Source: Amphiscolops sp. MND2022 (taxonomy: Eukaryota). Taken from it: DNA of 64,000 nucleotides. Positions within the stretch are counted from its first letter, which is position 1. Each line of letters begins with the position of its first letter. Below the pieces are notes generated by a model that searched no databases, was not told the origin of the DNA, and saw only the letters and a program-made list of their open reading frames with translations. The position numbers were made by a program, and so were the translations under genes. The stretch covers positions 23,128,001 to 23,192,000 of the forward strand of contig OZ076409.1 of the NCBI GenBank assembly GCA_964187785.1, written 5' to 3'. Shown here piece by piece: positions 1-64,000 of this stretch.

Positions 1-770
1 AAATACATCCACATATAATCAAGTAGTTTCTTCTTGAGATTCTCCGGGTTGAAAAAGTCGAGAGATCTCTGCATGACGTTTATTCTGAATCCAGTTCTGT
101 GCCAAAAATTCTGCCTCTGTATTCCATATCTAGTGTCTGGGAGCACAACACGTCTCCTTCTACCGCTGTTTGTGATTTTGAACTCTTTCGAAAAATCCAC
201 ATTGTAACTTCCTTCCAGTAGGTTACTGAAAAGTAAAAGGTCTTTGAGCACTTTAAAGTAGAGTGGTGATAATAGGTTTGATTGGACCAAAGCATCCTTA
301 TAATCCAAGTTCCCGCAAATCCACTTCAAAACTTTTTTGTTGAATGTTTCGAAGATTTTGAAACCTAGTTTTTCTTAGTTCCCAGCATTCGGAGGCAAAA
401 AGTAACGACGCTGTTATTATTGGTCGGTAGAGATGGGCTTTACTTAGGGTACAAATGATCGGGGACGTACTTCTTCTTAGCAGAAAGAAAGATTTTGCTG
501 CCTTCCCAACTCTAACTTTGACGTGCTCGGTCCAGTTTAGTGATTCGTCTATCATCGGGCCCACGTCACAAACAAGGCTTTTGTGGTTTAAACTTCGACC
601 CGCCATAATGAAACAAACTCCTTCCAGAGTGTTCTTAATTCTGCCGAACTGAAATTCGCTGATTGAACACTTTTTCAAATTGAATAGTAGATGATTTTGC
701 ACACTCCAGTTGTGAAGGGCTTGTAAGTCGATTTGTAGTTTCTCTAAGGATTTTCGTCCTGCTCTTCCAT
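1..770 (-). mobile_element. Decayed non-LTR retrotransposon (LINE, CR1/L2-like), copy 1: C-terminal part of RT
   Basis: ORF 298-849 contains LQIDLQALHNWSVQNHLLFNLKKC and the LNWTEHV region typical of LINE RT downstream of YADD. Bases 1-~425 are near-identical to 955-~1378. Frameshifted. Confidence 0.8.
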
Positions 771-3500: not shown

Positions 3501-4243
3501 ATTTGTACAATGCCTTTTAGTAATTATCCTCCAAACGATAATTGAATCAGTCACCATGATGATAAGAACACGCGGTAGTAAAGCCTCAGTTTAAGAGGCA
3601 ATTGAGACAATTGCGTGCTAAAATGACTGGTGCTTGCGGTCATACTGGATCAAACATGAATAATTAAACGCCGATTATCACCCGTCACGACTGTAGCCAC
3701 CAGTCGTCAAGTGCAATTAAACAGCAATTAGTAAATCGAATGTCATTGGCTAAAAGCAAAGGTGCTAACACACCTTTATAGTTACACAATCGGGTAAAAC
3801 CGAACTCACTCACAAGTTGTAACCATTGATATAACCAGTTGCCTACTACCTTGCTTACGAGTTGTCAATCCTTATTTTAACATTAAAACATTCCAATTCA
3901 ACTTAAATTTCCAGACTTTTCATGGTAATTACCAGATCTCAAAGTAGTCAAAATAGACAAGTAGAAACTGAAAATATGGATAGATCAAGCGATAACGAAA
4001 GTGTAGCCAGTTTCCCTGAACTTTTATCCAGAGACCAAATGGTAGACCTTGACTCTGACGACGTTTTAACTAGACGTCAAAACAGTAACAGTTATAACAT
4101 TGACCAGCGATTTAATGAGATAAATAGACAAATCGGAGACCTTATCAATATAGTCCTTACACTGACCAATCAGTTTGCCTCCGTTAATGGAGAAGGGAAC
4201 AGACTGAATCCAGCAACTACAAGTACTGACGGTCGTTCCGACA
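3501..4243 (+). repeat. 5' LTR of Gypsy 1 (3' 743 bp only)
   Basis: Near-identical to 17316-18058 (about 5 mismatches seen by eye). Ends ...TTCCGACA immediately before the PBS. Confidence 0.95.
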
Positions 4244-5461
4244 TGGTGACAGGAGTCTCGAACCCACGACCATCAGGATCTCGAACAACACCACCCAACG
4301 GGACACCAAGGAGGACTGACGAAAGTATTCCGCAGATAGCAGATGTGATGACGGAAATCCACCATCTCCGCAGTACAATGGGGGAAACCTTGACCCATCC
4401 AAAAATCCTGCAGACCCAAGTACCTCTATTCAAGGGAAATCGAGACAAATACAATGAATTCGAGCATTTATTGCTCAACCACTTACGACCACATGCCCAC
4501 AAACTAACCGAAGAACAAAAACTCAACTACTTTCAGAGTCTTCTCAGAGATGACGCAATTGAGTTTTGGCAAACCCTAACAATCACGACAGAAACGACAC
4601 TGAGAGATATACTGACGGCATTCAAAAAAGAATAAGCAAAGGAACAACTCTCAGAAGTCTCGAAGTTCAAATTCGACCACCTACGATACGATCCGGCCAC
4701 TGAGTCATTCAGTACCTTCCTCGCCAATTACAAAAAGATTGCCAAACAAGCCTACGGCGAAAAGGCACAGAAAATTGTCCAGACCTTCCTATTTGCCAAA
4801 TTACCGATCCAGCTCCAAAACGAACTGGCAATTGCAGGAAAACACAATGCCAGCATTGAAGACATCAAAACATTCGTCCAGAGAAGATGTCAATATGCCC
4901 AGTAACTACCAAACCAACAACTCCTCCAACCGTTCAACCAAGCTATCCAGACACAAGAAGTCCCAAAAAAGCCAGTTGTTCAGAAGAGGAACGAAAACGA
5001 ACGACCAACAATCAAAAAGAAATTCGATGGCAACTGCAGATACTGCGCAATTTACGGACACAAATGGGCTGAGTGCCGAAAACGACTGCGTGACGAAGCA
5101 GCGGGCAACAACAACTCACAACCTCAGAAAAAAGCCCGAACAGCAAAATAACAACGCAGAAACACAACCAAAATACAATGCCAAACTGGTCTGCCAAATT
5201 TGCGGATATACAGGTCACTCCGCAAAAGACTGCCGTTACAGAATACCCCAAACCTCCGCCTACGGAAGCGTGCCATACAATAGGCAAACCACAAATTAAA
5301 ACAGGGACCTCCGACGCGACTTCCGAAGAGCACACAACTACCCTTACCCAGCAAATGAAATGAACGAACTTGCACCAGGGGACCAACAACAGCAAACCAG
5401 TGATGACTACTACCAACAGGAATTCACCGAAGGATCATCCAGCCAGCCAAAAAACTTCTGA
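3922..5461 (+). pseudogene. gag: gag of Gypsy 1, disrupted
   Basis: Starts MVITRSQ inside the LTR. Capsid-like region VPLFKG...FEHLL...EFWQ. CCHC knuckles CRYCAIYGHKWAEC (5035-5076) and CQICGYTGHSAKDC (5192-5233). In-frame stops at 4633, 4903 and 5297, and a frameshift near 5130. Confidence 0.9.
4244..4256 (+). promoter_or_regulatory. Primer-binding site (TGGTGACAGGAGT), most similar to a tRNA-Leu 3' end
   Basis: TGG directly follows the LTR-terminal CA. One mismatch to the usual tRNA-Leu(CAG)-type PBS TGGTGTCAGGAGT, so tRNA identity is tentative. Confidence 0.7.
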
Positions 5462-8400
5462 AGCCACGTCATCCGACTGACTATTACAATAACAAAGTGC
5501 GCAACATGAACAACTACTACTACACAAAGAACTACAAAAACCGGGCAACTGATCTTCGGCAGGATCAGAAACCTAAGGCTACAACTACCCACGAAACAAC
5601 CAATGACAAAGTGAACCCTCCCTCCGAACCAACGGACGTGAACTTACAAACGACAGAAGACAAACAGCACTCTAACTCGACTACAACGACTGACTGTACA
5701 AGGAAAACAATGAACCGAAAGAAAGACGTGGCGATCCAGGTGTTAACAGCAACACTCCAATTAAACAAAAAGGACAAGATGTTGTACGTCCCATTGCAAT
5801 TCCGAGAATACGAGAACCACGGACTCCTCGACACAGGAGCAATAAGAAGTGCAATGTCAGAAGACGAACTCAGACGAATCCTGTCTGCACACCCAGCCGC
5901 ACTTCTCGAAGAGTACCCAGCACCGGACTTCAAAGTCCAAATCGCAAACGGAAGCATCGTCCCGGTCCGGAAACAGGTACTACTTCGCTTCTTCATCGGA
6001 GGTAAAGTATTCGAGGAAACCTTCATGATTCTTCCAACCATGGATAACATCTTGATCGGAATGTCATTTTTCAAAAAGTATTCAGTGACACTTGACCTTG
6101 CCAACAACGTAGTCAAGTTCCCGGATATTACCCTGCAACTGAAACCAGAACGAGGACGATACAAAAATCCAGATGATCAAATTACGAACGACACAGAAAA
6201 CAGTCATACAACCGGACCACCAAATCATTGTCCCCGTCCTAGCAGAAAGGGACCTCGGGACAATCCAGGGCACAGTGGAAACCTTTCCTGCCTTTGAAAG
6301 GAAGACACAATTACTGGTGTCCCCCGCCCTAACGCAAATCACTGAGAAGAAAAGCCATGTCCAGATCACCAACCTCACTTGCCATACAATTACCCTCAAC
6401 CCGAACACGACAGTGGCCACCTTCAAAATAATGACTCCCAATCAAGCAAAAAACCTACAATCAATGTCAAACGAACAATTGACACTAATAACCAAATACC
6501 CGGACGAAGCCAACAACGTACTGAACCAACTGTTCCAGGAACCCGGCACTGAAACCAACCGCAGATGGTACCCAACCCCGGAGACATGTGACGACCCGTC
6601 CAAGCTGAACCGCATTGAAAGGCGGATATATGACGAAATCACTCAACTCCGTGAAGAAGAGAAACTGGACCCAACAGCAGACGACCAACAACGCAAGGAG
6701 TTCCTTGCTAACTTCAAATGGGAGAACTCAATCCTGAATGAACACGAACAACAACAAATTGAGAACCTCCTTGTGAAGTACAACAATGTATTCGCCAGAC
6801 ACCGCCTCGACATAGGCATCAATACTGACTTCAAAATCAAACTCACTCCGAAGCATGATGAACCAGTCTACGCGCAGAGCTTACCTACACTCACCAACCT
6901 CAAAGATGACCTGCTCGTCGAACTAGCGCTGATGCAAGAGTACGGGATCATCACGACGTTGCCGTACAGCAAGTATTCCTCACCAATATTTGCCCAGCGC
7001 AAACCCAATGGGAAACTTCGCATTCTTGTAGACCTGCGCAGAATCAACCACCTCTTGAAAAATGATTAAAACCAACATAATCATCCAGTCACCACCATCG
7101 CCGACGCCGCCCAGCACATGGCAGGGAAGAAGTACTTCTGCAAGCTGGACTGCTCGCAGGCGTACCACTGTTTGCAGATGGCGGATGAACAATCCATACA
7201 ACTCTTGGCATTTAATTTTGGAAGTCGAACCTTTGCTTATCTACGACTGGCACAAGGACTCAACCGATCCCTATCAGCATTCAACAGCACGGTGCGAGAA
7301 TACGTTGATGCACTGGTGAAAGCGGATAAATGTGCCCAATATGTCGACGACATTGGGATTGCTGCCCACACTGTAGATGAGCTACTGTCAAACATTGAAG
7401 CTGTGTTCCAACAAATCCAAAAAGCAGGACTGAAATTGTCGATGTCAAAATGTGCGTTTGGCCACCCACAGATCGACTTCCTCGGGAGAAGCATCACATC
7501 AAAGGGTGTCGCCCCACTCGAAGACAAGATCGACGACTTCCTCAAGAAGATCAAATTGCCCACATCAATCAAATCCCTCCAAAGGTACATCGGGTTTGTC
7601 CAGTTCTACAGGCAGTACATACCACGCCTAGCAGAAAAACTCACCCCACTGTACAAACTACTCCAAAAAGACGTCAAATTCCAGTTGACCCAGCAGCACA
7701 AGGACATCATCTTCGAGATTAATGAAAATCTTGCCAAAGCTGCGAAACTTTCGCTGCGTCTGCCGTTACCCGATAAACAGCTTGTTATAATGTGCGACGC
7801 CAGCGAGCAGGCGGCAGGATATGTCCTCCTGATAGAAGACTATACCGAAACAAACGATGGACCACTGAAAACGTACGCCCCAGTATCATTTGGATCCCAA
7901 CGATTCACGGAGGGCCAAATGTCCCTAACAATGTACGCAAAGGAATTCCTGGCGATGCATTTCGCATTCGATGAATTCGCACACATACTCTGGGGTGTCA
8001 AGAAACCAACAATAGTAATGACGGACAATAAAGCACTGACCCGATTTTTTCAGTCTAAACGGATTCCCCCGAAGCTATGGAATTACTGCGATCAGACGCT
8101 CCAATTCGAATTCGTACTTGCCCACGTTCCTGGAACTGAGAACCCTGCTGCAGACTACCTGTCTCGTCTTGACATACGACCAGAGGAAAGAATACACCTC
8201 AAACTCAACAACGAGATACCAGTCTTCCACGTCGAGATCGACCTGGCATCGAGAACACCCAAGCAGGACGAAGAAGAAGAAGAATACATACCTGATGACC
8301 AACACACTACCACCACCAAACAAAATGAAGCCATCAACGCCATCCTGGACCAGATCCCCATGTGCAGCAACGAATCGAGTGGACAGTTTCTCGAGAGGAT

Positions 8401-10254
8401 AGAAACCATCCGTCATCAAATCACACCCATCGTCACAGGGCAACATGACGAGATGACGTTCACCAGATTCAGACGAAAGCTTCATGACAACGTGGTAAAC
8501 CAGGTATGCCCCAATGGGGAGTTTCAAATCATCCAGGATCAAGTCGTAAACCTTGACATCCAACGCATGATTAGAATTTTGAACCTAAAGGAAACCCTTC
8601 CTAATCATGTGAACTTTGAAAGTCAGTTTTTCCAAAAACTAGTTAAAAACAAGAAAAGACTTGAAGTAGTGAGCAACGTTTTGTACAGGAGTTTTTTTGA
8701 TGGTACAGGTGAAATCAAGTGTAAACAAGTTGTCACTCCCCCTGAAACCATTCGGAAAATCATTCAATCCCTGCACGATGACCCTCTGCAAGGTCACCCT
8801 GGCTGTAACAAAATGCTCCATGAACTGCGTAAAAGGTACTACTCACCAAACCTCTCTGAACTGGTACTGCAATACGTCTCGAACTGCCAGGACTGCATCC
8901 GCGCAAAACCAATCCGAAAAGCTGCAATCACACCACCACTTCAACAAATATACGACCCCTGCAACGGACCAGAAGACATACTAGAAATCGATTTAGTCGG
9001 TGAACTCCCACCTTCCAACGGATGCACACACATCCTCACTGCATGCGACTACTTTTCTAGGTACCTCTTCGCAATACCAATCCGTAAACCGGACACAAAG
9101 TCGGTCGTAGAAGCACTCATGCAAATCTTCACGCAGCACTCGTATGTACCCAAAACAATCTTAACTGACAAGGGAACGACATTCACATCTCAACTACTCA
9201 ACGCCCTGATGGAGTCTGCCGGTATAAAAATCAACACGCCTCTGTAAAGCACGCACAAACGATCGGGATGGTTGAACGTTCACATCAAAAACTGAAACAA
9301 ATTCTCAAAATCAACATCTCAGCTGATTCACCACAATGGCACAAATACGTCAACATGGCCGTAATGGCCCATAACACAACCTACCACCAGGCTATCCGAT
9401 GCACACCCACTGAAGTTTTCCACGGACGTGTTCCGTTCAATGCCCTTGACGTCAAATTTGGCCATCCATTAACCGAACAACGTAACACCACTGACGTCAC
9501 TGGAATACTAGATAACATGAACAAAAAATTCCAACAAACACATGACAACATAATCGAAGCCTTTCACAAATACAAGAATTACTACGACCGAAAAGCGCAA
9601 GCTTCACCTCTGAAAGTAAATGATTTCACCTTTCTGCTAAACAAAAGACTGTCTCAGCAATCTGAAAAAATTCCTTTCAAGGAATTCAAGTGGGAAGGCC
9701 CATACAAAGTGGTCAAAGTCTTGTCAAATTCAAATTACATCATACGTAAGATTGGCACTCTTCGCACCCAATGCGATCACAGAATGAGGCTTCGCCCATT
9801 CACGCCAAACGCACCAATCGAAGACATTCAAGACAATGCATCACAATATTTCGAAGATCCTGACGCCCTCAACGAGCAGGAGTTATTTGACAATAACCTA
9901 CCTGATCATGTCCATGAACAGCCACAACAAGTAATACCTGAACAATCAAACTTCGAAGAGTTACACGCAGACCATGGAATGATCTACTACGAACGGCAAA
10001 ACATAGAACCTGATCAAAACATCTCCATACCTGAAAGCCAGGCTGAAACACAAGAACCACAACCGGATAATGCTAGCATGAACAATTCTGAACACCAAAC
10101 AAATGATCGCCCTCCAGCGCCATCACGACACACCATGTCTCGATACGGGCTCAGACACAACCCAAAACCTACCACGTACCCTGATTTCTTAATGCACGAA
10201 TTACATGGTACGCCTTCACTGCAACAGTTACTTCTGAAAAACAGAAACCTGTAA
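5449..10254 (+). pseudogene. pol: pol of Gypsy 1 (aspartic protease, RT, RNase H, integrase), disrupted
   Basis: Motifs LLDTGA; RILVDLRRIN; YVDD; CDAS...KEFLA...TDNKAL...ADYLS; H..GH..C..C; integrase core EIDLV...TDKG...VERSH. Frameshifts at ~6165 and ~9237, stop at 7067. Confidence 0.96.
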
Positions 10255-11998
10255 AACACCCATCCCTCATTGCATTTCTCAAACCAACGACTGCTAACAG
10301 CAGTCATAAACAGTCTCGCTCCTTGACCGTAAAAGTAATTGTTTTACAATTACGACCCTGTATACCAGTACTCAACAAGCAGTATTTAAAATTCCGGACA
10401 ACCTAGCACACAATCCAATTAATACGATTAAATGACCATCCACTTCCGTCGTCACTGTTTGAGCTGTCTAATTACTTAGCGTCAACTACTACGTAAGAAG
10501 CAAACAAACGGTAACGCAACGACTGCAAACGCCAATCATCCCAACACTTGCGGCCCAGAAGCACACGTAGCACGCAAAAATTTGAACGATAATTTATTCA
10601 ATTCTCACCAAAACTACCACTTCAACAAACGAAACGAAACACTTCGCTTAGAAAACCGTCGAAACACAACTAACGAAACGTGAAAGAAAACAACGTTCCC
10701 TACAATCGCAACAAACTAACAGTGACGATCTGCTGCCTGGAAAACGTTAAGACAACACAACCAATACTCCACCCATTTCGACTTAAACCCATAGTGCTGG
10801 CTGTGTGGGTGCGTCGTCGAAAAGCGCGCTTGTGTGGTTGGTCGTCACCATACAGATGAAGGTTGCTCTTTAGCAACTGGATTCAGTGTTAGTTTTGCAT
10901 AGGTGGTTCCGACGGGAGTTCACCTTTTCCAATGAACTGAACACCAAAAATAACAAACCAACCATAGACGATAACACAACGCCGGTAAAGAACAAGAGCT
11001 TGCCAAATTCAGAAAACAATGAATACCCGACCCCTTAAAAGTAACCACATATGCGAAGGCTTCGCCTCGCTTGGGAAAAGATTCAGGAGTGCGCGGCCCC
11101 AACCTCTGCTTAGTATTAAAATCTACACACACCCATAGTTCTCAGTCTAACAACTTCCTACCACCGAAGTTAACATAATGTAAGAACTCGCGATCTTGAC
11201 GACACACATCACGTATGATGACGTCCCAGGACACACATCAACGATGATGACGTCGCGTACACAGACCGCTACATGTAATATATTGAAACACACTAAAATA
11301 CATGTAAAATAGTCCCTAAAAATTATAACATGAATATTACATACACACAAAATAAGTCATGCATCAAACCAAGGATACACTCCTTGAGCCTTCCGTCATC
11401 GTAATGAACAAGCTGCTCAGTCAAGTACCTTACAGTGCGGCGCTAAGGACTGGAAGGCCATGGTCTGAATGTCTCGTTACCATTCTCGAGCCTTCACTAA
11501 CAACTTACATGAAAACCTGGCTCTCGAGTACCATGCACAGCACAGTTTGACGCGTGAAAAAAAATGTTTATGCTAATGGTTACCACAGTGACAACCATAA
11601 CCAACATGAACTTCCTCAATAAATTCCCTGAACACGCCGTAACAATTAGAGCGTAAGTCCACTCGAAACCATAGCGAAGTATGGGTTACCCCATACACAC
11701 ACTTAAGAAAGACAAAGCCAGTCCAGCATCATGCATAAACGTACATACAAGCAAAACAAGTGAAAAACCTCTTGTGACGTCCGAACTGTCCAGTCCTAAG
11801 GAAAAACAAAGAAGAGTACTATGACGGTTGCAACCATCTAATTAAATCACTAGAAAGTGCAAGACCTACTAAGGCCAAAACAAAAAAAATTGCAGCCTAT
11901 AAAGCAAATCACAATATCAGGACTCAATAAATACACAAAAAGCTGAATACACAAAGAAGTATGGAAAGTCTGATTACTAATACAAGTCCTTCTGCCAA

Positions 11999-14900
11999 CT
12001 AATACTCTGTAGAACGGCTGGAGCTGCCCTCGTTACTGCTTTCTTCGAGTGAAAAAGCCCGCCTGCTGGCTTGTACAATTTCAGTCTCAAAGGTAGCCAG
12101 AGTGCGCTTCCCTTTCTTGTCCGGCTTCCCACCGGTCCTCCGTCCGTGATTGCCCCCTGACGTCCTACTGACTGCTTTGCGCTTCGGAGCTGACTCACTC
12201 GGACCTGCTGACGACACTACGACCTCGGATTGCAATTTCGGCGCTTGAGCTGCTGAACGCCTTGATTTGACAGGACTCCGACGGGGAGCAGTTGGACTCG
12301 ACTCCATTGTCCGCAACTGATTACAAACAGCAGACACATAATCGTCAATGACAGGGCGAGTAGGTAGTCCACCAGTCGTCTCCAGTACTGTGACACAGCG
12401 CCCAAGCGATTCATAAACCCCCCTCTTAACCAATTGGTCCCAAGGGATAGCTCTGCCTTCATCGGTTAACCGCGAAACCTGCATGTCTGTAGTGCCGCAG
12501 TGTCTAACAAATCCAATCATCGAGAGTCGAGAATGCCCGCCGAAACCACTCGACATCCAGCTTCGAATAATGTTCAAACTTGACAGCATGATATCGAGGG
12601 CTGTGTCTCCTACATCCTGAAAATCAGCAGCATACGAATCATGGAGCATTCCCACAAAAAGAATCTCCACAATGCCCCGGAATTCTTGGCACCGGTCCCA
12701 CGAAGGATATGACAGCCACAAAGACATGGCATCGTCAATAACTGGCACCACCGAAGCATTGGACTCCCATCGATGCTTGAAGTAGTTGACTACCTCGCGA
12801 TACTGCTGCAAGATGATGGCACCTTGATCTCCTCTGCATAGATCTCCAAAGCTGAGGACAGAAAGTGTACCCACAAGGATGTCTGTCAGCCGATCCATTG
12901 ACACCGACTGTATAGCATAAGGATCCAGCGGCAACAAGCTGAGGTGCCTAACCCACCCTTGGTCATAATCGCCAATGCACGACTCGCACACAGTCCTGAG
13001 GAAATTCTGCACTTCTTTATAAAAGAAAGGCTTCTGGCTGACCACGTCGAAGCGGAAGTACTGGCCGAACAGCACTTGAAATCGGGCCTTGTCAACAGGC
13101 TTACTCTCGCCCAATCGCAACTTCAACACGGCGAGGACTTCAAAATCAGGTGGTAGCGATGAGGGTTCGACGACCAGAGACAATAACTCCCGAAGGAAAG
13201 CAGCCAGCTCCCGCTCGAACCAGAAGTTCCGATCTCGCCCAGCAGAACACAAGCGAGGACACTTTGCAACAACTGAAACACACAGGCGAATCACAACCAA
13301 AATGTTGAAAAACTACACACCCTAGCAACTCAGACGTCGATAACACCCAAATCCACAATTACAACAAAACTAGTACCGACACACCCGTACACAAGTAACA
13401 CTCAAAACTCTTATACTGACCTGTCTCTGCCAGAAATTTCAAAACTGCAAATCGCGGCCTCGACAAAGCATCGTTGAAGACTTGAGTTTCCATACTGGCT
13501 ATACTCCGCGTTTCGGACACAGTATTTGACCGGTGAACACCGAAGTAGGCACCGAGGTCGTCCCATCGCTCCACAAGTTCGGTGCACAGTGCCGACAACT
13601 CCTGGAAGCGCGCAGCACCACCACGGACGAACTAAAACAAAATTAGCACCGAGTTAGAACGAAGCAGACCACGACCACACATTACCACACATACTCACAC
13701 CAGTCCCCGAAAAAAAAATGCGCTAACAAACTTAAAATCAATTACCTCTCGAAGCCTTGGCATATTGTCAAACGACGAACCACCGATGACGGCGGCTAAA
13801 CGGAACCGGAAATACTCCAACACGCAGAAGGGTTCCAGTCCACTCAACTCTCGCAGAAACGTGCGCCGCAGCAAATCCTTCAGCCAGTCCACATCGAGAC
13901 GACGGGTAACCAAAGGTATGGCTGGGTGCGCGATGCTAGCTAAAGCACGCCCAAGACGCAGATTCTCTCCCACACTCACAGCACACAGACCCGCATGAGA
14001 CTCCACACAGGCCAGAAAAGAGACAACGATCTTGAGTAGTGAGCGTTCCCACTCACCACCACCAGGAATAGCAGCTAGCACAACCATCTTGACTGTCAGA
14101 GCGTCAAAAATGTGGCAATTCACCCGCTTCAACGACCCATCAGTGCGGACGTGCAGACCAAACCGCGCCCCAGCAGAGAGTAGATCGCTCAGTTTCTCCA
14201 TGACAAATGGATACAGGCCGTATAACACAAGACTCTACAACAAACATACAACAGTGACACTTCTCAGCAAGTACTGCCAACGAAAACAGTAAGCAACTGC
14301 AAACACGAACTAGCAGACAAGAACCAACATTCACGAACAAAACATGTATTACCTGACATTTCGGGTATGATAGCACCCTCTCACTGAAAACCAGCTCGCC
14401 CCGCATGCTACTGGACCACACTTCCATGGACCGCACAACGCTCGAAAAGTCCCTCAGTTCAACAAAGTTATTGATGAAGCAGCATAGCCAGAGGTAAGAA
14501 CTGGACTCCGACTACTCGGGTTTCGAACCAGCTGCCTCCTCTTCTAATTCAACTGCAATCCGCTCTTCAACAGTCAGCTTCACCTCTGACTCCAGAATGA
14601 CAGGTGGCTCTGACACTCTGGCTGCCCGAATTCTCCGATCCTCGTCCAATGACACGGGCCTACAGGACTTGTCCAATAGAGGCCTATTAGACATGATGCG
14701 GAAGCGCTGCTCAAGACGAGTGTGCTCTCGCCCTTTCCAATGATCCCACAAGTTGTGTAGCCTACGTCCGGCAATGCTTAAATCAACGCGGCACAGTCGA
14801 CACCTTGCGAACCCGTCCACCACACGTTTGTTTCGGGGAAACCAACGAAGGTCCCCACGACCCCAGAAACGAAGAATGAGGGTTTCAACGTTTTGATAGC

Positions 14901-16160
14901 ACGTTTCCGTCCTGCTAACACACAACACAAATCACTTAGCACCACTGTCCAGCCAAAACCTTCCAAAAACAAAAAAAACGTGTTTGTCCTTAATCAGTAG
15001 TAGTACGTTACATACACCTCTTATTTCTTTGTTTACCACCTAAAACTAAAACCCCTCACGTGATCTTTTGAGAGTTCTTACCAGGCTTTGATGTGGAGGC
15101 AACAGCGGACGAAGTCCCCCAGAAGGAACGACGCTCTTTTCTCCAAACTCAGACGGCACATCAGATTCCACTGCCGCACGACGATCGTCCACACCAGAGA
15201 TGCTCCCAGCTACGGAGCGTGGTAGAGAAGAAGTCTCACCACCACGGGGAACGAGAGGAGCTTGACCCAGTTCTCGCAACGCTTCCTTCATTTTGTCCAG
15301 GAATTCCTCGACAGCCAGAGCACCCACTGTCCCTAGCCGGCCCAAACTAGACTCGATTGCAGCCTTCAACCACTGCTGAATTTCCCGTTCTACACGTTGA
15401 AACAATTCAGTGAACTGCCCCACAATGACATCAGCTCGAACGTTGGCATCTGCAAAGTAACCCTTAGTTCATAGCACCTACTTTGGACTCAACGACTGAA
15501 GGCATCTATCACCGCCTGGTTAGAGAACAGCAACCGTATACTGCATGCATTGGTATTGAACAACAAAAGAACCAAAAGACCCCCCAGCAGATAACTTAAC
15601 TTCACAGTAACCGTGAATTCACCTACCAAGTTGCGATGTCAGAAAGGCATCCAGTCGACGAAGGATGGGCGCCGCCTCCGTCTCAGAACCCTCAGCAGTT
15701 CCAGTGGCTATCGAAGCACGAAAGCGACGTAAATAACTGACCACGTCGGACATGTTGACATCAGCTACAAACACGAGAACACCCTATTTAAAATGCTACG
15801 CCTGACACTCCCTAACATTACGGGACTCAAACTTGAAAGTATGCAAACTTGAAGGAAAGACTTAACTCTCCCTTACGCTTTAGACATACCACTGATAGTA
15901 GTACAATATAGGAAGTGAGCACTTACCAAATTCCTGGGAGAGAACGACATCCAATAAATCGCTTAAACCAGCGATATTAGCAGAAGATACCCGAGCCGCA
16001 AACTGACAGCAGTAACTAGTCTCCAGCAATAATCCTGATAACTCCAGATCGCCTCCACTTCCACCTAGCTGAGCCCCTCTCCGGCCATCTGATTCTCCAC
16101 TTCAGCGACTAACTCAGCTAATCCGGGACCAAAGGACTGACCTGCCTCATCATCAGACAT
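11999..16160 (-). CDS. Antisense 7-exon cargo gene in Gypsy 1: zinc-finger protein derived from a hAT-type transposase (this copy has lesions)
   Basis: Predicted exons 16160-15927, 15764-15627, 15449-15060, 14911-14353, 14234-13746, 13631-13421, 13272-11999, all GT-AG with compatible phases. Zn finger at 14802-14722. Stop at 14512 and probable frameshifts near 16075 and 14830. Confidence 0.78.
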
Positions 16161-16962
16161 ATTGGATAACGCTGGGAGAAAAGGAAATAACTGAAACTCT
16201 CCGGGGAAATAATAATCGGCGACGAAGACACGACTGCAAAAGCTCATTCTTCCATTTATTGTTGTTATAGACTGATCACCTATTCCAATATACAATGGAT
16301 ACCTGATCTCCTCATCAAACAGTTTTACTCTAGTAAAACTGGACATTCAAGGAACCATATTTTTGGACCTACTTCCACCAGACATCAAATGCTAATTACA
16401 AGAAGCAGAAAGAAAGCAGTCGTATTTCCCGGCCAAAAAAGACTAATTCCCCGAACAATCTTATCAGTACAAGCGATACCCGAAAAACACAGGACTAACA
16501 GTGCAAAAAACAAAACATGGACATATTTTCATCATTGTGGAAGAATGAGCTAAAGGTTGACAAACGGAGGTGAATACTCTCAAATTAAAGCGGGATCAAA
16601 TTTCAATTCAAACAGTAATTGACTCGACTGACTTTCACTATGGCAACACAACAAATCAATCAACTGCCGATGATCGATGAAAAGTTGCTTAAACAAACAT
16701 CACACTCAATGCGCACTACACGGATGACGTGGCTGTCAAACCGTTTCTATAAATAGACTTCAACTTCCGACTACCTACTATTTGCCTGCCTCACCTTGTC
16801 CATTCACGCTTCCGAATGTTTCCGGAAGCTACATTGCCACCCACGCGTTTCTCTATACCTTGCAGGCCACTTCAGCCGCTGTTCAATACTCCACTCAGAT
16901 ATCTGCTACCTCTCAACTCGACCGTTCACCTTACCCATTACCCCTACAGCCTGCTCTCTCTC

Positions 16963-16976
16963 AAAAAGGGGGGGAA
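16963..16976 (+). promoter_or_regulatory. Polypurine tract
   Basis: AAAAAGGGGGGGAA immediately precedes the TG start of the 3' LTR. Confidence 0.9.
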
Positions 16977-18058
16977 TGTCATGCCCGCCAAGCGTGAAGG
17001 AATTAAACGAACTCTAAAACATTAATTTATACATCAAACTCCCTAAAATACAGATCATCATGAAAATACATTGCAGTAATTTATTCCCCGAACAATACAG
17101 TTGAGAGTATAACGACTGGAACTAACAGTCATCAATACTAAATTCATTCATATTATTGTGCATCGTTTAGAAACCAAGACTGAAACAATCAGTCATCAGC
17201 TATCGTGATAGTTTGTGATTTAATCATTCTTCATCCATTTTTTATATTACATGTAAAGTATTACCAGAATATTCAATCATTCATAACAACTACATTTCGT
17301 TCATTCATATTAGCAATTTATACAATGCCTTTTAATAATTATCCTCCAAACGATAATTGAATCAGTCACCATGATGATAAGAACACGCGGTAGTAAAGCC
17401 TCAGTTTAAGAGGCAATTGAGACAATTGCGTGCTAAAATGACTGGTGCTTGCGGTCATACTGGATCAAACATGAATAATTAAACGCCGATTATCACCCGT
17501 CACGACTGTAGCCACCAGTCGTCAAGTGCAATTAAACAGCAATTAGTAAATCGAATGTCATTGGCTAAAAGGAAAGGTGCTAACACACCTTTATAGTTAC
17601 ACAATCGGGTAAAACCGAACTCACTCACAAGTTGTAACCATTGATATAACCAGTTGCCTACTACCTTGCTTACGAGTTGTCAATCCTTATTTTAACATTA
17701 AAACATTCCAATTCAACTTAAACTTCCAGACTTTTCATGGTAATTACCAGATCTCAAAGTAGTCAAAATAGACAAGTAGAAACTGAAAATATGGATAGAT
17801 CAAGCGATAACGAAAGTGTAGCCAGTTCCCCTGAACTTTTATCCAGAGACCAAATGGTAGACCTTGACTCTGACGACGTTTTAACTAGACGTCAAAACAG
17901 TAACAGTTATAACATTGACCAGCGATTTAATGAGATAAATAGACAAATCGGAGACCTTATCAATATAGTCCTTACACTGACCAATCAGTTTGCCTCCGTT
18001 AATGGAGAAGGGAACAGACTGAATCCAGCAACTACAAGTACTGACGGTCGTTCCGACA
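16977..18058 (+). repeat. 3' LTR of Gypsy 1 (1082 bp, TGTC...GACA)
   Basis: Follows the PPT, has TG...CA termini, is followed by TSD TGCAC, and contains a copy of the gag N-terminus (ORF 17737). Confidence 0.96.
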
Positions 18059-18388
18059 TGCACCAATTGAGCCTTAGATACAGATCCGACTCTAGACGTT
18101 CACGTCTTGTTTGAAAACCGCCGACTAATAACAAGAAATGGTCCAAGTCGGCGCCCTGTTAAAAACAGGAAGAGCAAATTTGTTACATGTTCAGGGATAG
18201 TCAAGAAAGCGTACGTTCGCACCGGAGGCCTTCACGGAGCAGGAGTGTTTTTTTCCGTTTTTTTCTCTCAGATGACACAAATCGTAAGTAATCTGGTGCG
18301 ATGTATGGCATCAAGTAAGGGGGAGGGGATGGCAAACACCCGTAGTCTGCAAAAAAAACAAACGATAGGCGCACTACTATTTCTCATG

Positions 18389-18756: not shown

Positions 18757-19498
18757 GGGTGGGCGGAAATAGGTCGAAGGAACGGGTTCGAAAATCAGAG
18801 TTAGTCTTCAGGTCGACATACCAAGTTTTTGAATGGGATCGAAACAACTCGGATCGAAATTTTTATAACGTAGTCAGATATGTTCACATACCCCTAGTGC
18901 CCTGAATGAATTCCGGACGTTTCGGCAAAAAAATATGCCGAAACGTCTCAGGCTAAAAAATTTGCCGAAACGTCTCGCATGATATATGCGATGTATGCAC
19001 GCTCGCCCTCACCGTCGCAAAGACCAGCTCCCACTACGATCGCTTCGCGATCTCCGTTCCCGCTAGGTCTTTGCTCCTGTTCGACCTCGCTTAGCAAGAT
19101 GGGCATATAGGCGGCCCCAAGGGGCCCCGGGGCACTAGAGGAAATGGGGACATATCCGAGAGGGGAACAGGACGTTTCGGCAAAAGACGTTTCGGCAAAA
19201 ACATGGCGGCGGACGTTTCGGCAAAAAAATTTGCCGAAACGTCTCGGATTTCTTTTTTTGCCGAAACGTCTTTGCCGAAACGTCCTGTTCCCCCCTGAAT
19301 GCAGGAGCGAAGCGGAGCGGAGCGACGTGCCATATGGCCATGCCTCAATGTTGCTACTTGGCGAAGGGAGCGAAGCGATCGAGCCATACAACAAATACGA
19401 TAAAATTCGACCGCATTCCATTCGATCCCTGCAATTCGATCAAAAGGTTCGACCTCTGTCCTTTCGACCAGAAAAAATCGACCTATTTACAGCCACCC
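18757..19498 (+). mobile_element. MITE family A copy interrupted by a nested element
   Basis: Both TIRs are present and the copy is split at 18908/19293. Its outer flanks (ccagccact and tgattaaat) do not form a TSD. Confidence 0.88.
18909..19292. mobile_element. Nested foldback-type MITE with GACGTTTCGGCAAA repeats and core B
   Basis: 9-bp TSD CCCTGAATG at 18900-18908 and 19293-19301. Palindromic array at 19162-19292. Confidence 0.85.
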
Positions 19499-19748
19499 TG
19501 ATTAAATCACAAACTATCACGATAGCTGATGACTGATTGTTTCAGTCTTGGTTTCTAAACGATGCACAATAATATGAATGAATTTAGTATTGATGACTGT
19601 TAGTTCCAGTCGTTATACTCTCAACTGTATTGTTCGAGGAATAAATTACTGCAATGTATTTTCATGATGATCTGTATTTTAGGGAGTTTGATGTATAAAT
19701 TAATGTTTTAGAGTTCGTTTAATTCCTTCATGCTTGGCGGGCATGACA
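19499..19748 (-). repeat. Displaced, inverted 5' end (250 bp) of the 5' LTR of Gypsy 1
   Basis: Reverse complement of 16977-17226. The outer flank GTGCA (19749-19753) is the reverse complement of TSD TGCAC at 18059-18063. Confidence 0.93.
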
Positions 19749-21035: not shown

Positions 21036-21391
21036 AGTAGTTAAGATTTCCGCCGGCCTTTCAACGGGGGGGGGGGTCCTCGGTTTTCACGGGGTGGGTC
21101 CTTGCTCTGAAATTTTAGGACCTATCCCTAAAAGGAAGGGGTCCTTCCAAATTGGTGTTCGGAAATACTTCGGCTTTTGACTACGAAAGTAAATTATTGG
21201 TCGGATTCTTTTTGTATTCGTTTTTTGGATTCTTTTTGTATTCGTTTTTGGAATCGGATTTTTGCGAAAGTACATGTAAAAGCGTAGACACTCTTGTTTA
21301 TTCTTTGAATGTCTGAAAGTTTGGAAAGTACTAACCTTGAAATTTTGTTGTAATTGAATTGTAAAGCTGGATTGACTAATACTGGTACAAC
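21036..21391 (+). repeat. Left TIR of Polinton (~356 bp)
   Basis: Near-perfect reverse complement of 37766-38122. Confidence 0.95.
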
Positions 21392-21711
21392 TTTCTTGTA
21401 AATAAAGGGAGTGGTATTTCCAACTTTCTTATCTGTATGAACACTTAATATTATTAGGAATAGTAATATGCGTTCCTCCAAATGTAGTGGTAGCGGTGTT
21501 CTTATTTCTACCTGTAAAATATCTTAACGTCACAACAAATTCGTTTTGAATCTACATGTTGTTGCTAACCCCTGACCTACCCAAGTTAAATTTAATATAA
21601 CTGTAAACCACCATTCTTCGTTTCAACTCTTGTTTGAAAACAAAATGAATTTCACAAATTCAAGCTTTATTATGCTGTTAACGTTATACAAAGAAAAATT
21701 AGTGAATGATA

Positions 21712-25879: not shown

Positions 25880-25944
25880 TTGGAAAGTCGAGTGTTCCTC
25901 AATGTTGAGATTGAGAAAATGTTTTTGCACTTCGCTCCGATCAA

Positions 25945-26192
25945 TTAAGGAGGTGATTACCATTTATGGTATCCCGAGCGACTGAATTCTTTGAATTCTG
26001 ATTCGATCACTATTTATGGTATCCCAGGTGCCATTTTTACCAGGAAAATTGTTTGCATGTTCGACTTTTAACAAGGCGATAACCAATTATGGTATCCCGA
26101 GAGACTGGATTTCTTTAAATTTTGATTCGACCACCTTTTACGGTATTCCAGGCGCCATGCTTTTTCCAGGAAAATTGTATGCATGTTCGACT
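25945..26192. repeat. Two diverged ~125-bp direct repeats upstream of polB
   Basis: tatggtatcccgag...ccaggaaaattgt.tgcatgttcgact occurs twice. Confidence 0.75.
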
Positions 26193-26251
26193 AACTTTTT
26201 TTGTTTCCGTATATTGACTGCTGGGCATTATAGGGGGGGGGGAGGAACGGG

Positions 26252-29787: not shown

Positions 29788-29817
29788 GAATAAAAATGCT
29801 TGAAATTAAACATTAAA

Positions 29818-30258: not shown

Positions 30259-30261
30259 TTT

Positions 30262-32798: not shown

Positions 32799-32816
32799 TT
32801 TTCTTTTTCACCAAAA

Positions 32817-58369: not shown

Positions 58370-61300
58370 ATGGACTCCCGTCCAATTGCTTCTGTTGCTG
58401 ATCCTGGGGCCCAGAGTGGTCATGAGACACAGTACGTGTTTTCGGAGGGAGAAATGCGTCATAGTGACGCGGACAACGTTCGTTCGCGGGCAGTTGGTAA
58501 GTATTTTTTATTGCCTGATCCATTAAGCTTTAGTGAATGATACTACATCCAGATAGGCCTTTTCTGTTTCATATCTTCACAGCTTAGTTTTTCTTGACGC
58601 GTCGATGTTGGGATTGTACTTTTCTTTCAGAGCCCGAGGTGGTACCTCCTCCTCCTCCTGACGTAGGTTTGGACGACACTCCTGCGGTCAGTTCTAGTGT
58701 GGTCCCTTCAGTGGGTCCATCTTGTACTCCTTGTGTTTCCTCTGTTCCCGTCTCTGGTGGTGCTGAGACTCCTGAAGTGTCAAGGTCAAAACCTGGCATT
58801 ACTCTTCCTGGGCCACCTGTTGGTTCTTCTTGCGGAGGCGAGATGACATCCCCCGCGGGCGGTGATGACGTTTTCGGGGCGACAACTCCAAGAGCTGGGA
58901 TCCTTAGTCAGACCTCCAGATCTCCTCGGTTGTCATCTTTCTTGCCGGGTTTTGGAAAAACTTGTGCTGCCCTAGCGCAATCAGAATCGCGGAAGAGAGG
59001 TAAGCTTGAAGTATCATCTTGGTGTCTATATTGTGTGATAGTTTTGGTGTTTCATTTTTCTTTCTCTTTCCTCTCTTCTTCTAACGATTGTATCTTCGTT
59101 GGTATAATATATTGATGTTATAGTCGCGTCTACTGCTGCTGAAAGAACTGGGACAGGGTCTTCTGGCAAGAAAAAACGACAAGTGCGCGTCCAGACGGCT
59201 AACTTGCAGCTCGCTCAGCTGACTGTGAGCGGTAATAAAGATTTCTTTTCTTGTAACCATAACTTAGAGAGTCGTGATGACAGTTTGAGTATGGATCGAT
59301 TTTGTTTGTAGATTCTGGTGATTGTACTGCTCAGGACATCTCTGGAGTTAGCGATATTCCGGAAGTTGAACGTGCTGCAGTTGGACCTGTTCTGGCGAGT
59401 GAGTATTTGTATTATGATTGTGTTCATTGTTTTCTCTTTTCCTTTCTTTTCTCATTGGTACGTTTCGTAATCGTCATTTGGGCATTTTCTGTTGTCGTGT
59501 GGTTGCTATAGTCATGTTTTGGGTGGTATTAGTTCGTAGTTGTGTCGTTACATAGGGATGCAAGATCTCATGTCCCGAATGGAGAGTAGCCTGGAGGCTG
59601 TCGCCCTGCGTGAGAGTCCTGTCAGGAAGTATAGCAGTCGTCATCACTTGCGGAAAGACATGGTGGGCAATCATCCAGTCTTCAGCTTGTTCGTCAGTGG
59701 GGCCAGCAACGGGTCTGCATCGCGCTTCCACTGCATGATCTGTAAGCGCGATGTTTCGATGCAGTCTCGAGGTGCACGAGAGTTCGTTCGTCATTTCTCC
59801 GGAGATCGCCATTGGACACGAGATGTGGCATATCGAGTGCAGCATGGTATGCCAGTCTTTGATCAACTGATGAAACCTCTCGAGTTGACGTCTGAGCAGC
59901 GGGCTGAGTATCTCAGTCAGGACGTAGTCGAGAAAGACGAGGGTTTCAGTTTCCCCGAAAATTTGTTGCCTGCTTGCACTCGGGTCGATTCGACGATTCC
60001 TCTTCTCACCATGGTGAATTGTGTCGCTGAATTGTGTAGGTGGGGCGGCAGCTACGTCTTGCTTCGTAAACTGTGGGGCAACTTTCGCGCTACTCTGGGA
60101 CCTGACAATCCTCTATATAGTCTTCATTGGAATCGCCCTGAGACACTGGTCAGTAGGTTTTTATAGTATTAGTCTGTAGTATACGTAACGTAGTATTCAT
60201 TCTGCTGTTGTTATTTAGATGCGGGGCACTGACACGCTCGTCTATTCCGAGACGACGAACAAATTGCGACTGGGGATGTTGCTTCATGTACTTGATCTGT
60301 GTAAGTTGTTTTTGGTTTTTCACTTTCGTCGTTAGTATGGCCAGTCTTTGATAGGTTGTGTAGTATGGTGGTCACTCTGTTGTGTTTTCGTCTAGGTGAC
60401 GTAGTCTTCGATAGTTTGTTCTTAGTTTTCTCTTGTGTTTAGATCATTGCACTTTTAAGAAGCAGAAGTCTGGCCGTGCTGACTACGCGTTCCATGCGTA
60501 TAATGAAGTATGCCAATTTGTGTACTGTTTGCTGACCCGTAGCCGCAAGTTGTCTAGTCTGCCACCTCTCGACGATTGGGAATCTTACATGGATTCTTCA
60601 AAATTGGAGTCGTTTGAAAAGATTAGCAGTGACGACTTCTTGACCAATCATGAGTTCGGAGCTGAGTTGCATCGATCAAGTACCAGCGAGGTGTGCGAAT
60701 TTCGCAATCGCTGTCGGGAATTCGTCAAATCGTTTGGTTGACGTGATCTTGAGTCAGCAGGTCGTGTCCTCCGATTTCCTTCAGGGTCTGTATTGCTTCT
60801 GTCCTGAGTTGCTGCTAGAGGGGGACGATCGCCATATCTTCCAGCTGTTCTTTCGGCTGGTTCGTGTGCTTGAGCGTTGTGGCTGTCTTTCCAGTAGTGA
60901 TGCCCTGACTAGTCGTGAGGAATTTGCTACGTTACGTTTGTCGTCAGTGCTAGGACGCGACATCGTGACTCAGAGAGAAGGGCAGAACAGATTAAAGATG
61001 TTACTGTTTATTTGCTCTCTGATTACAGTTTTATGTCGCGAAGGAGTCTGGTGCGAGTCTTGAAAGTATGCTGCTTGGTGATAGATCGCCCTCAGAGGAA
61101 GATGCCTGATATTGAGATCGACTTGAAAGATTGTGCTGTTCCTGCTGCTGTCGTGATGTCGTGTTTGAGGGGCGTCCAAAGTCATGTGTCCTCTCCTGAT
61201 TACAAACAGGGTGCTTTCTTCACTCAAGGCACGATGGAGAGTGTTCGTGATGCGATCGCTAGCAGTCGCAATTTCATGTCGTGTGCTGGTTTTGATCCGT

Positions 61301-61764
61301 GGGAGGGCTTGGCGATTGGCGAACGTTCATCTTTCGTCCAGAAGTATTCGTCAGCTTTTGATGCTTATCTGAGTCGCAAGAAGAGCGAGGCTACTAAGCA
61401 GCTTCATAGTGCGAATCGGCAGCCGCGTCATGTTCAGTTCTCTGATTCAGGTGGTTCGGGCAAGTCAAGTGCCTGTAATTCTCCTCGTGCTGTGTTCCCG
61501 AGTTCCTCATTTGCTGTTGCTTCTTCAGAGTCAGGTTCTGAAGTTGGGACGTCAAAACAGCGCTCATATACTGCTGAGTCTGCATTAGCTGCTATTTTGG
61601 GACAGAAGAAGGAGGCGAAACCCACTAGTAAAGAGTCAGCTGTGCGGAAAGAGGCCTCCCCTAAGCTTGTCGTCAAGGATTCGGCGAAGAGTCAGAAAAA
61701 GGATGCCACGAAGAGTTCAAAGCCGTCTAGAAAACGGCCGGGTTCCAAGTCAGAGCTCGATTGA
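58370..61764 (+). CDS. Antisense 7-exon cargo gene in Gypsy 2: zinc-finger hAT-transposase-derived protein (frameshifts in last exon)
   Basis: Predicted exons 58370-58496, 58631-58999, 59124-59231, 59312-59398, 59556-60148, 60219-60300, 60443-61764, all GT-AG and phase-compatible. Zn finger at 59732-59812. Shifts near 60730 and 60940. Confidence 0.78.
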
Positions 61765-62067: not shown

Positions 62068-64000
62068 CTAGTGAGTCGTAGTGATAGCGTCAAGTCGTCT
62101 GAAGTCAGGATTAGCGTTAGGTTTAGGATTAGGTCGTAAATTGTATTTTGCTATTTTTCTTGGGTTATATCCGACAGCTGTAGGCGGTGATCTTGGGGGA
62201 ATAGGTGGACTTTCAATGGGTGGGGGGCGTCGTATGTATGGGTTATCTCCCACGTCTGTTGTAAGATTTGAAAAGTCCGGAGACAACGGCGCTGTGTCAT
62301 TTGTATCTTCGATGTAATTTTTTGGCGTTTGCGACGTTGCGTCTTCGTCATTTGTATTTGTCGCTTCTTGTGTTTCTGCGTGATGGTTGTTTCTTGTGTT
62401 TTCTGATGTTTCGTGTTCATCAATCTGTTTACCAAAATCCATTTCCCATGATACTGCATACCATTCATTGTGTGAGATTTTAACGTCTGGATCAGAAAGG
62501 TAGTCGTTGGCTCGTACTGTGTCGTCAGGCAAGCGTTGTTCAGGTACGTAAGGTCGTATTCGGACTCTATGTAGCGTTTGTGTGTATCTCGTTCCAAGTT
62601 TTCGTATTGTGTAGTTGTTATTTGATAGTGCTTTTATCACAATATACGGTCCTGTCCAAATGCAATCTTGGAACGCGAACTTTGTCGACTGATTGTCGGC
62701 TTTCGGGTTCAGAATGTAGCAATAGTCATTTACTTTGAGCGGGGCTGCCGACGCTTTGCGGTCGTAATATTTTTTGTATTTGAGATAAGACAGCATGATG
62801 TTGTCCTTCGCTGTCGCCCTCACTTCGTTGATTTGTTTTTGTAGTTGTTCTGCTATGTCCGAGTTAGGGGTGGTTTTCCACTTTGGCTTGATGCCCAGTT
62901 TTAAATCAAGAACGTTGTAGGGTATACGTCCATGGAATACTGTGGATGGTTCACAACCTAGTGTTTCATGATACGTTGTATTGTAATTCATGACTGCAAT
63001 TTGGACATATTTGTGCCACATTGAACGTCTTTCACCCATCGATATTTTTAGGGCAGTTTTGATTGAAGCATGAGTTCTCTCCAAAATTCCGATTGTTTGT
63101 GCATGTTTTGTAGACGCGTGGCTAATCTGGATTTCGAGTATCTGAGTTATTTCTGCAACGACTTCTGATCGGAATTGAGATCCCTTATCCGATAATATCA
63201 GTGTTGGCAAGTATGCGTGTCTTGTCATGACGTCGACAATGCAGCGTCCGATTGTTTTCGCTGTGACATTCTGTGTTGGGTATGCGAATAGGTAGCGTGA
63301 AAATACGTCAATCATCGTAACAATGTTTTGGTATCCTGCAGAATTGGGTAGGTTCGGCAATATATCGATTTCGAGAATGTCCTCCGGACCTAGGACGTGT
63401 TCCGTATTGTTGATCATCTTCGGTCTGATTTGACTGTTGTTGATTCGTTTGTATTTGATGCAGTCTTCGCATCGCATCACCCATTGTCTGATCCGTTTTG
63501 CTAGTCCGGGATAATAGTATTTTGATCTGAATTCGAGGATCATTTTTGTGATCCCTGGGTGTTTTCCCATTTGTCCATGGAGTGCTTTCAGAAGTTCAGT
63601 AATCAAATGCTCAGGGATTAGTATTTGGTGATGAGTAACCTGACCGCACTCTCCGTAGTATTTGCGCATGAGTATTCCATCTTTGACTATGAGTCTGTTT
63701 TCATGGACTAGGAGACGTTTTGCTGTCGGGTCAGTTTGTAAAAGATGTTTGTCATATTCTTCGCATATCAACTTCTTTTTGATTGCTTTGAAAACTTGGT
63801 TTGAGTCTTGCTCTACTCTGATGCGTGCGTCTTCTTTTATTGCCCCAAAGGTGTAAGAGGCTTTATTTATCGGGATTGGTGTTGTTTCTTTTATGGCTAG
63901 TTTTATTTTTGTCGTCTCTTCATCGCGCGCATTTTGTCTTGCTTGTTCTTTTTGTAGGAAGATTTCTTCTTCGGTTTCAATTGTTTCATCTGGAAGGAAG
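62068..64000 (-). CDS. pol: pol of Gypsy 2 (integrase region; 5' part outside the window)
   Basis: H....KHPG...C..C zinc domain, DDE core EID...SDKG...LERTH, GPY motif. Confidence 0.95.
   Translation of the reverse strand, partial: FLPDETIETEEEIFLQKEQARQNARDEETTKIKLAIKETTPIPINKASYTFGAIKEDARIRVEQDSNQVFKAIKKKLICEEYDKHLLQTDPTAKRLLVHENRLIVKDGILMRKYYGECGQVTHHQILIPEHLITELLKALHGQMGKHPGITKMILEFRSKYYYPGLAKRIRQWVMRCEDCIKYKRINNSQIRPKMINNTEHVLGPEDILEIDILPNLPNSAGYQNIVTMIDVFSRYLFAYPTQNVTAKTIGRCIVDVMTRHAYLPTLILSDKGSQFRSEVVAEITQILEIQISHASTKHAQTIGILERTHASIKTALKISMGERRSMWHKYVQIAVMNYNTTYHETLGCEPSTVFHGRIPYNVLDLKLGIKPKWKTTPNSDIAEQLQKQINEVRATAKDNIMLSYLKYKKYYDRKASAAPLKVNDYCYILNPKADNQSTKFAFQDCIWTGPYIVIKALSNNNYTIRKLGTRYTQTLHRVRIRPYVPEQRLPDDTVRANDYLSDPDVKISHNEWYAVSWEMDFGKQIDEHETSENTRNNHHAETQEATNTNDEDATSQTPKNYIEDTNDTAPLSPDFSNLTTDVGDNPYIRRPPPIESPPIPPRSPPTAVGYNPRKIAKYNLRPNPKPNANPDFRRLDAITTTH

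Follow-up and report, generated by a model that had tools for sequence, protein, structure and literature searches.

Organization of the locus

The window analysed here, a stretch of 64,000 nucleotides from an assembly of 1.07 Gb, contains a Gypsy retrotransposon (element A) and part of a second element (element B), each with a gene antisense to pol, which we call cargo A and cargo B. Element A has the features of Ty3/Gypsy elements, namely LTRs, a primer binding site (PBS), a polypurine tract (PPT) and the order PR-RT-RH-IN. Cargo A lies on the minus strand, with pol on one side and the 3' LTR on the other, and positions 12300-14234, in which the original prediction saw a transposase-like but catalytically dead cargo, correspond to predicted exons 5-7 of this seven-exon antisense gene. 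The features are as follows.

3501..4243, plus strand: 5' LTR remnant of element A, 5' part missing (repeat comparison), directly followed by the PBS-like sequence TGGTGACAG
3907..10254, plus strand: gag-pol of element A with zinc knuckle, protease, RT, RNase H and integrase, several frames broken (Pfam, ORFs)
11999..13272, minus strand: cargo A exon 7, predicted helical insertion-domain-like part, then a Ser/Arg/Lys-rich tail
13421..13631, minus strand: cargo A exon 6, covering the hAT RW motif region, which here reads ARF (R 13608-13610, F 13605-13607)
13746..14234, minus strand: cargo A exon 5, predicted RNase H-like core (AF2 model, Hermes alignments)
14353..14911, minus strand: cargo A exon 4, BED-like CCHH finger (14722-14802) and helical region
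15082..15449, minus strand: cargo A exon 3, predicted, 1-base indel (boundaries, comparison with relatives)
15627..15764, minus strand: cargo A exon 2, predicted (AG/GT boundaries, conserved block)
15927..16110, minus strand: cargo A exon 1, start approximate, 1-base indel (GT donor 15926, conserved in relatives)
16963..16976, plus strand: PPT (sequence reading)
16977..18058, plus strand: 3' LTR of element A, TG...CA (PPT and TG start, repeats)
58370..61764, plus strand: cargo B, lineage B, antisense to element B pol, start approximate
62071..63999, minus strand: integrase end of element B pol (ORF; related to the element A integrase)

The two LTR copies of element A (3501-4245 and 17316-18060) differ by five mismatches in 745 bp, and the 5' end of the 3' LTR sits just upstream of the start of the antisense gene. 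RVT_1, RT_RNaseH, rve and Integrase_H2C2 scored above the Pfam cut-off in element A; the protease and zinc knuckle scored under it. The gag frame starts inside the LTR, about 320 bases ahead of the PBS (3907-4243; 17722-18058), and positions 19499-19748 repeat the initial part of this LTR in inverted orientation (250 bp, 99%), beside small palindromic repeats at 18909-19296. Downstream of cargo A, at 11201-11254, are two 25-bp repeats ending GATGACGTC, and just upstream of the cargo B start, at 58144-58336, are four 28-bp repeats with a GACGTCA core, which we take to be CRE-like; both sets are candidate regulatory or cargo-binding sites. Element B also has a 255-aa acidic, Ser-rich frame at 57231-57995 (minus strand, the same as its pol), situated between the start of cargo B and what is presumed to be the 3' LTR; a Pfam search returned no family for it.

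Structure and state of the antisense genes

The seven exons of cargo A were predicted from blocks conserved in relatives and from GT..AG boundaries; the introns are 114-177 bases long, and the phases join correctly through exons 5-7. The helical region of exon 4 is located where hATs have their dimerisation domain. Exon 6 was placed by a profile alignment and by its correspondence to residues 351-420 of an intronless relative, directly after exon 5. In the lineage of that relative (lineage C, described below) the core is contained in a single frame of 862-918 aa (at least 51 scored matches; 11114 candidates), in which the window exon 5 corresponds to residues 185-350 and is followed by exon 6 with neither gap nor overlap. 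Since the intronless proteins join exons 5 and 6 exactly, they support the splice model of cargo A independently. A search for longer proteins with exon 7 as the query found none, although the intronless lineage exists.

Both cargo copies in the window are broken. Cargo A has 1-base indels in exons 1, 3 and 4 and an in-frame stop in exon 4 (14512-14514); exons 5-7 are open frames. Cargo B retains the finger, and comparison with two close copies showed that its RNase H exon has been deleted (about 745 bp, at about 60193). The deletion joins two introns, and both flanking junctions are of phase 0, so that the frame would be kept. Multi-sequence alignments of lineage A and B cargo were colinear; a direct profile comparison of lineage A exon 7 with the cargo B frame of the window gave no significance.

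An antisense gene family with at least four lineages

Relatives of the cargo amount to hundreds of copies and fall into at least four lineages (A-D); in a quick tree, each of these is separated from the rest by a branch with SH-aLRT 99-100. Searches of the genome yielded at least 133 scored matches with exon 7 (1056 candidates; 56-100% identity; 23 with an internal stop) and at least 150 with the second cargo (4578 candidates). The integrase lay on the opposite strand from the cargo in 40/40 and 35/40 fetched loci. Among the individual loci, contig C13 (45783680-45791748) carries four close exon 7 copies in two pairs 1.6 kb apart, L078 and L201 have internal duplications, and L041 (755-2112) has unrelated frames with a zinc-finger-like start upstream of the cargo gene, possibly a nested element.

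The dN/dS ratios, which are rough, as six of 20 pairs were saturated and most dS values exceeded 1, were 0.04-0.12 in 13 of the 14 measurable pairs and 0.24 in one near-identical pair. They show that the cargo has been retained under purifying selection, in agreement with the retention assumed in the original prediction. The finger, CxxC-16-H-5-H, is near-invariant, its four residues being present in 27/27, 27/27, 26/27 and 27/27 copies and the motif in 38 of 40 further loci, and conserved P, W, S and F residues lie in the helical domain, far from the active site. For four database proteins (P0023, P0177, P0161 and P0121) the best match in this genome reaches no more than 58, 53, 35 and 39% identity, respectively, and because these values are low the family is likely to be present in other organisms.

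Intron positions also record the history of the family. Intron 4 occurs at the identical codon and phase in lineages A, B and D, the last intron is of phase 1 at a matching place in the same three lineages, and intron 5 is common to A and D, whereas lineage C lacks all three. A tree with an outgroup groups C with B and D (SH-aLRT 94; a quick tree with a long-branch warning), but an AU test did not reject the placement of C as sister to all the others (p 0.17; 26/38 rows). Intron loss in lineage C is the best reading of the tree, although a single gain in the other lineages is compatible with the AU test. Loss, if it occurred, suggests that the antisense mRNA was spliced and then copied back, and would thereby be an indirect sign of antisense expression.

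Probable relationship to hAT transposases

The system with which we compared the cargo is that of the hAT transposases, represented by Hermes (PDB 4D1Q, 8SJD, 8EDG and 6DWW) and by a clade comprising L157-L160 of this genome and proteins P0152, P0179 and P0180. Like these, the cargo has a CCHH finger, which is followed, in the predicted order, by a helical region, an RNase H core, a helical insertion and a C-terminal helical part. It differs in having no DDE, CxxH and RW set, no terminal inverted repeats (TIRs) and no match to PF05699, in being fixed inside an LTR element, and in having extra N-terminal exons and a basic tail.

The AF2 model of exon 5 (pLDDT 79.7) has the RNase H-like topology helix-b1b2b3-a-b4-a-b5. 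Among the Foldseek matches, chains of Hermes took ranks 2, 3, 7, 8, 9, 13 and 19, that is, seven of the top 19 (best TMq 0.51, E 1.1e-3); the sole match with E < 0.001 was an unrelated chain with TMq 0.27. In VIA, Hermes had Z 6.3 (rmsd 3.6, 103 residues aligned), and on the Foldseek shortlist Z 6.9 (rmsd 3.6, 105 aligned, 1..111 = Hermes 152..265); an alternative alignment takes in 154-156 of 163 residues at rmsd of about 7 (Hermes 152-324). With the exon 7 model (pLDDT 68.1, below 50 beyond residue 210), Foldseek gave no match, and Hermes came fourth in VIA (Z 4.7, rmsd 5.6, 149 aligned, 1..221 = 368..579), this alignment being the longest of 50 rows and in the correct order after exon 5. 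A comparison with Hermes had been proposed with the original prediction; for the two exons, folded as separate pieces, it gives a suggestive match at middling Z scores (6.3-6.9 for exon 5, 4.7 for exon 7). With the RNase H topology of exon 5 and these alignments, the hAT-like fold that had been claimed is likely.

Sequence profiles were also compared. A profile of the finger exon matched 341 proteins at E 0.001, the 150 of these that were listed being mostly short and apparently cargo relatives (14 inspected); one listed match, P0152 (E 1.8e-11), carries PF05699. A cargo profile (28 rows) aligned with a profile of the nearest hAT clade (6 rows) over 480 colinear columns, with a score of 38.5 and E 0.0012, against 18.1 for the reversed control and a maximum of 23.8 in 20 block shuffles. 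Because this clade had itself been discovered through the finger, the alignment was repeated without it, giving 382 columns, a score of 26.8 and E 0.025, which was above 40 of 40 shuffles, narrowly (maximum 26.2). The hhalign probability was 19% with the finger and 2% without, identity to the clade was about 15-17%, and a profile of the core scored no more than 1 bit on any individual hAT protein. Colinearity extends until just before the C-terminal PF05699 region, for which Pfam found no match in the cargo. Nor did Pfam assign a family to exons 5 or 7 or to the intronless full-length proteins, its zf-BED model did not match the cargo finger, and a PDB sequence search with the cargo gave no match. 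In the ESM Atlas, nine of the ten best family-bearing matches shared a family or clan (scores 0.82-0.86, to be read as leads only), the listed families including FAM200-ZBED5, ZBED1 RNase-like, DUF4371, DUF659 and Dimer_Tnp_hAT; exon 5 alone gave no usable match.

In the genome, the nearest hAT clade (L157-L160, L183-L189) was found only as near-identical copies with different internal deletions, and it carries an intron inside the finger. Searches of the genome for it gave 22 matches among 63 scored in one case and four in another; further searches gave three proteins, and no match in the metagenome contigs searched; it had no match to DUF4371, for which the control was likewise silent. The proteins P0152, P0179 and P0180 are hAT derivatives with several fingers, from which catalytic residues have likewise been lost; they probably come from another organism that domesticated them as host genes. 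With the Ac-type hATs of the genome, the match was confined to the finger (score 22.8, E 0.13).

There is a slim chance that the core is not derived from a hAT at all and that a BED-like finger became attached to an RNase H-like or actin-like fold of unrelated origin, which would make a "missing" DDE meaningless. Generic RNase H-like folds do rank above Hermes in VIA, where Pelota was first and, with actin-like folds, exceeded it (Z 8.1 vs 6.3-6.9), the core-only profile score is marginal, and the Pfam and PDB sequence searches were blank. However, the generic folds span only about residues 23-113 of exon 5, which Hermes alone among the listed folds covers end to end, and five features occur in hAT order and spacing: the finger, a helix before b1, the RNase H strands, an aromatic residue at the RW site with W..v..yF after it, and a helical domain ending D..s.w....L. 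Since individually weak lines agree in order and spacing, we consider the cargo likely to be a hAT descendant.

Probable loss of the catalytic sites

The key residues of Hermes are given as D180, D248, R318, W319 and E572 in the part of PMC6027215 drawn on here. We tabulated the corresponding sites for each copy, anchoring them by hand within each lineage and by range end-points, not by atomic superposition; re-anchoring by lineage was needed because MAFFT, given whole proteins, misaligned b4 of lineage A with that of B/C. The strings quoted in the original prediction, FGLHVRTDG and LCAVSVGE in exon 5 (14234-13746) and ILFVGMLHDSY in exon 7 (13272-11999), are all present on the minus strand, and their placement at the catalytic sites agrees with both the structure and the hAT alignments. 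In the window copy, the D180 site falls at V29/R30 and was taken as R30 (14145-14147); the D248 site falls at G89/E90 (13965-13970), a placement ambiguous by one residue, with Glu at 90; the CxxH site is R111..D114 (13893-13904), R111 aligning to Hermes 265; and the E572 site is A214 (12629-12631) or A215, in a stretch modelled with pLDDT < 50. The Hermes numbering that we assume for CxxH fits the alignment with exon 5.

Across the family, the first Asp site, where b1 ends, had Asp in 2/65 rows and Asp or Glu in 13/65 (Arg in the window), the chosen column of the second, where b4 ends, had Asp in 7/66 and any acid in 13/66, and the Glu site had Glu in 3/63 (Ala in the window). Cys and His of CxxH, which follows b5, were each present in 0/66 rows, and the RW site had Trp in 0/47 and Phe in 39/47 rows of the lineages other than D. 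An exact DDE triad was found in none of the 62 rows having all three sites, a count that excludes five lineage D rows with one or more sites missing. Eleven columns carry an acid in 70% or more of the rows in every one of lineages A, B and C, and no DDE site is among them, so the family consensus contains no conserved acidic cluster of the kind that would contradict the claim. Complete loss of DDE was thus borne out as regards the triad, but not for every position: the second Asp site was Gly in 17/17 B and 15/15 C rows, and in lineage A the G89 or E90 column had Asp or Glu in 14/15 rows. Similarly, the claim that neither cargo gene has CxxH or ERxFS holds for exons 5-7 of cargo A, which contain no CxxH or ERxF; the cargo B frames over 60131-61764 contain no ERxF but do have two chance CxxH strings (CFLH and CLDH), and with its RNase H exon deleted, cargo B is unreadable in the window at the first Asp, second Asp and CxxH, where it too had been judged. 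For comparison, the five long hAT frames of the genome keep D, D, E and TRW in 5/5 and CxxH in 4/5 (read by eye), and the motifs of the nearest hAT clade are CGRTK, SDASN, TRWLS and ERVFS, that clade being compared without the D2-CxxH stretch of any intact member.

Traces of the acidic residues do persist, and some subfamilies at least might still encode a working nuclease or transposase whose active site is shifted or non-canonical. For example, two lineage D rows have Asp at both the first and second sites, three lineage A rows have Glu at the second and third, and, with a slack of one position per site, five of the 62 rows, all from one B subfamily, are acidic at all three. Such residual catalysis is nevertheless extremely improbable: no site is conserved between lineages, CxxH and Trp are absent from all rows examined, including the five B rows, a one-residue shift along a strand would be expected to turn the side chain away, and no convincing TIRs flank the gene, none having been found in 10250-17320 or 55300-62100. 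Given hAT ancestry, it is therefore highly probable that the cargo has no cutting activity.

Comparison with known systems

Antisense ORFs located between pol and the 3' LTR (aORF-3R) are described in PMC11963269 and PMC7264820, in the portions used here, from the plant elements Retand (TRP28/PF04195), Grande and RIRE2 and from the fungal Boty, and their products are there proposed to be DNA-binding regulators. As characterized in these portions, aORF-3R genes share with the cargo the position, the orientation and the conservation across the family by which they are recognized, but the cargo encodes a different protein family, has a likely animal host and contains up to six or more introns; PF04195 (TRP28/Transposase_28) was not matched by the cargo at E 0.1 or by the intronless proteins at E 10. 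The same portion of PMC7264820 calls the origin of most aORFs unknown, for lack of similarity to other transposable elements, and judges nested transposon insertion unsupported for want of such similarity. Unlike most aORFs in that account, the cargo has a traceable likely transposon origin and so would be a traceable likely case of the nested-insertion route.

Among host genes, ZBED1/DREF and DAYSLEEPER, as far as our partial sources describe them, resemble the cargo in being hAT-derived and selected, in keeping the finger and in being DNA-binding factors, a function that is putative in the cargo; they differ in that the keeper of the cargo is a mobile element, the gene being multi-copy and mobile, not a fixed host gene. 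The VANC proteins of VANDAL elements are likewise element-encoded accessory proteins in the account taken from PMC6719617, but their activity has been shown, whereas the cargo is known here from its sequence, and the analogy is one of function that does not imply a sequence relation. The part of PMC6431247 drawn on here lists other cargo of Gypsy elements but not the gene described here, and a literature search outside subscription journals, Repbase and supplements found no LTR element described as carrying a hAT-derived gene. Gypsy elements with antisense accessory ORFs are known, and what is likely to be new is the traceable likely hAT origin. The case would be one of a transposase domesticated by another transposon, not by the host, in hundreds of copies or more in a genome of 1.07 Gb.

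Proposed role of the antisense protein

We suggest, with a probability of about 0.5, that the cargo is a non-catalytic, sequence-specific DNA-binding protein that acts on the DNA of its own element and keeps it expressed. An ancestral Gypsy element would have received a hAT transposon in reverse orientation. Because the genomic RNA of the element is the other strand, the introns of the hAT could have persisted there; the hAT would then have lost its ends and active site and been kept for a product that helps the element. The near-invariance of the CCHH finger makes DNA binding plausible, and a regulator of the element's own copies is favoured because the BED domains of Hermes bind short subterminal repeats, according to the part of PMC10368747 used, and because VANC proteins are described in the part of PMC6719617 used as family-specific anti-silencing factors encoded by VANDAL elements. 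By analogy with these, the finger and the former dimerisation region might recognise short repeats of the LTR or the internal region, and the protein might be a family-specific, VANC-like activator or anti-silencing factor, a proposal with about even odds. A fuller version, in which an ancient Gypsy lineage domesticated a hAT as its own sequence-specific anti-silencing or transcription factor and the precise absence of three successive introns in lineage C records reverse transcription of its spliced antisense mRNA, is tentative and rather unlikely to hold in all its parts.

The retained finger, and a fold that is that of a protein binding DNA ends, would also suit a dead hAT derivative that tethers cDNA ends or integrase to chosen genomic sites or chromatin. 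In addition, Arg or Lys occupies the first Asp site in 14 of 15 lineage C rows (one with Arg after Ile) and in many lineage A rows, which would suit phosphate binding. Such a tether is nonetheless unlikely, in that the cargo would be expressed from the opposite strand, separately from gag-pol, and nothing places it in particles. Somewhat less probable still is action on RNA, on a host small-RNA pathway or on host proteins instead of element DNA, with which the lost catalytic pocket, the conserved helical domain with its invariant P, W, S and F and the basic low-complexity tail would be compatible. Against this reading, conservation is highest in the CCHH finger, and that of Hermes binds repeats in DNA (PMC10368747, in the part used). 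The original prediction had also named dominant-negative action on hAT proteins. An inhibitor acting on host hATs through mixed oligomers or occupancy of their ends would be expected to carry the finger and dimerisation-region helices, which the cargo likely keeps, and would have many targets (at least 150 scored hAT matches, 2215 candidates), but this seems very unlikely: identity to the nearest clade is only about 15-17%, all the copies of that clade found in the genome carry internal deletions, and a retrotransposon would gain little. As for the proposed role in DNA binding and expression, the four lineages, one of them encoded by a single, easily expressed open frame, allow a direct test of accessory gene function.

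Other features of the window

Between the two Gypsy-associated genes, positions 21036-38122 hold a Maverick/Polinton-like element with 357-bp terminal inverted repeats (99.2%), an rve integrase, a Pox_A32 ATPase and a 498-bp tandem repeat (26255-27677); a 1410-aa frame in it was read as polymerase-like, with no Pfam polymerase match. A host eIF3a gene (38292-52047), from which the host was judged likely to be an animal, starts about 170 bases from the right end of this element, and its exon at 38292-38735 scored 137 bits on the top PDB chains, which we take to be mammalian, and about 40 bits on a lower group, presumably from yeast.
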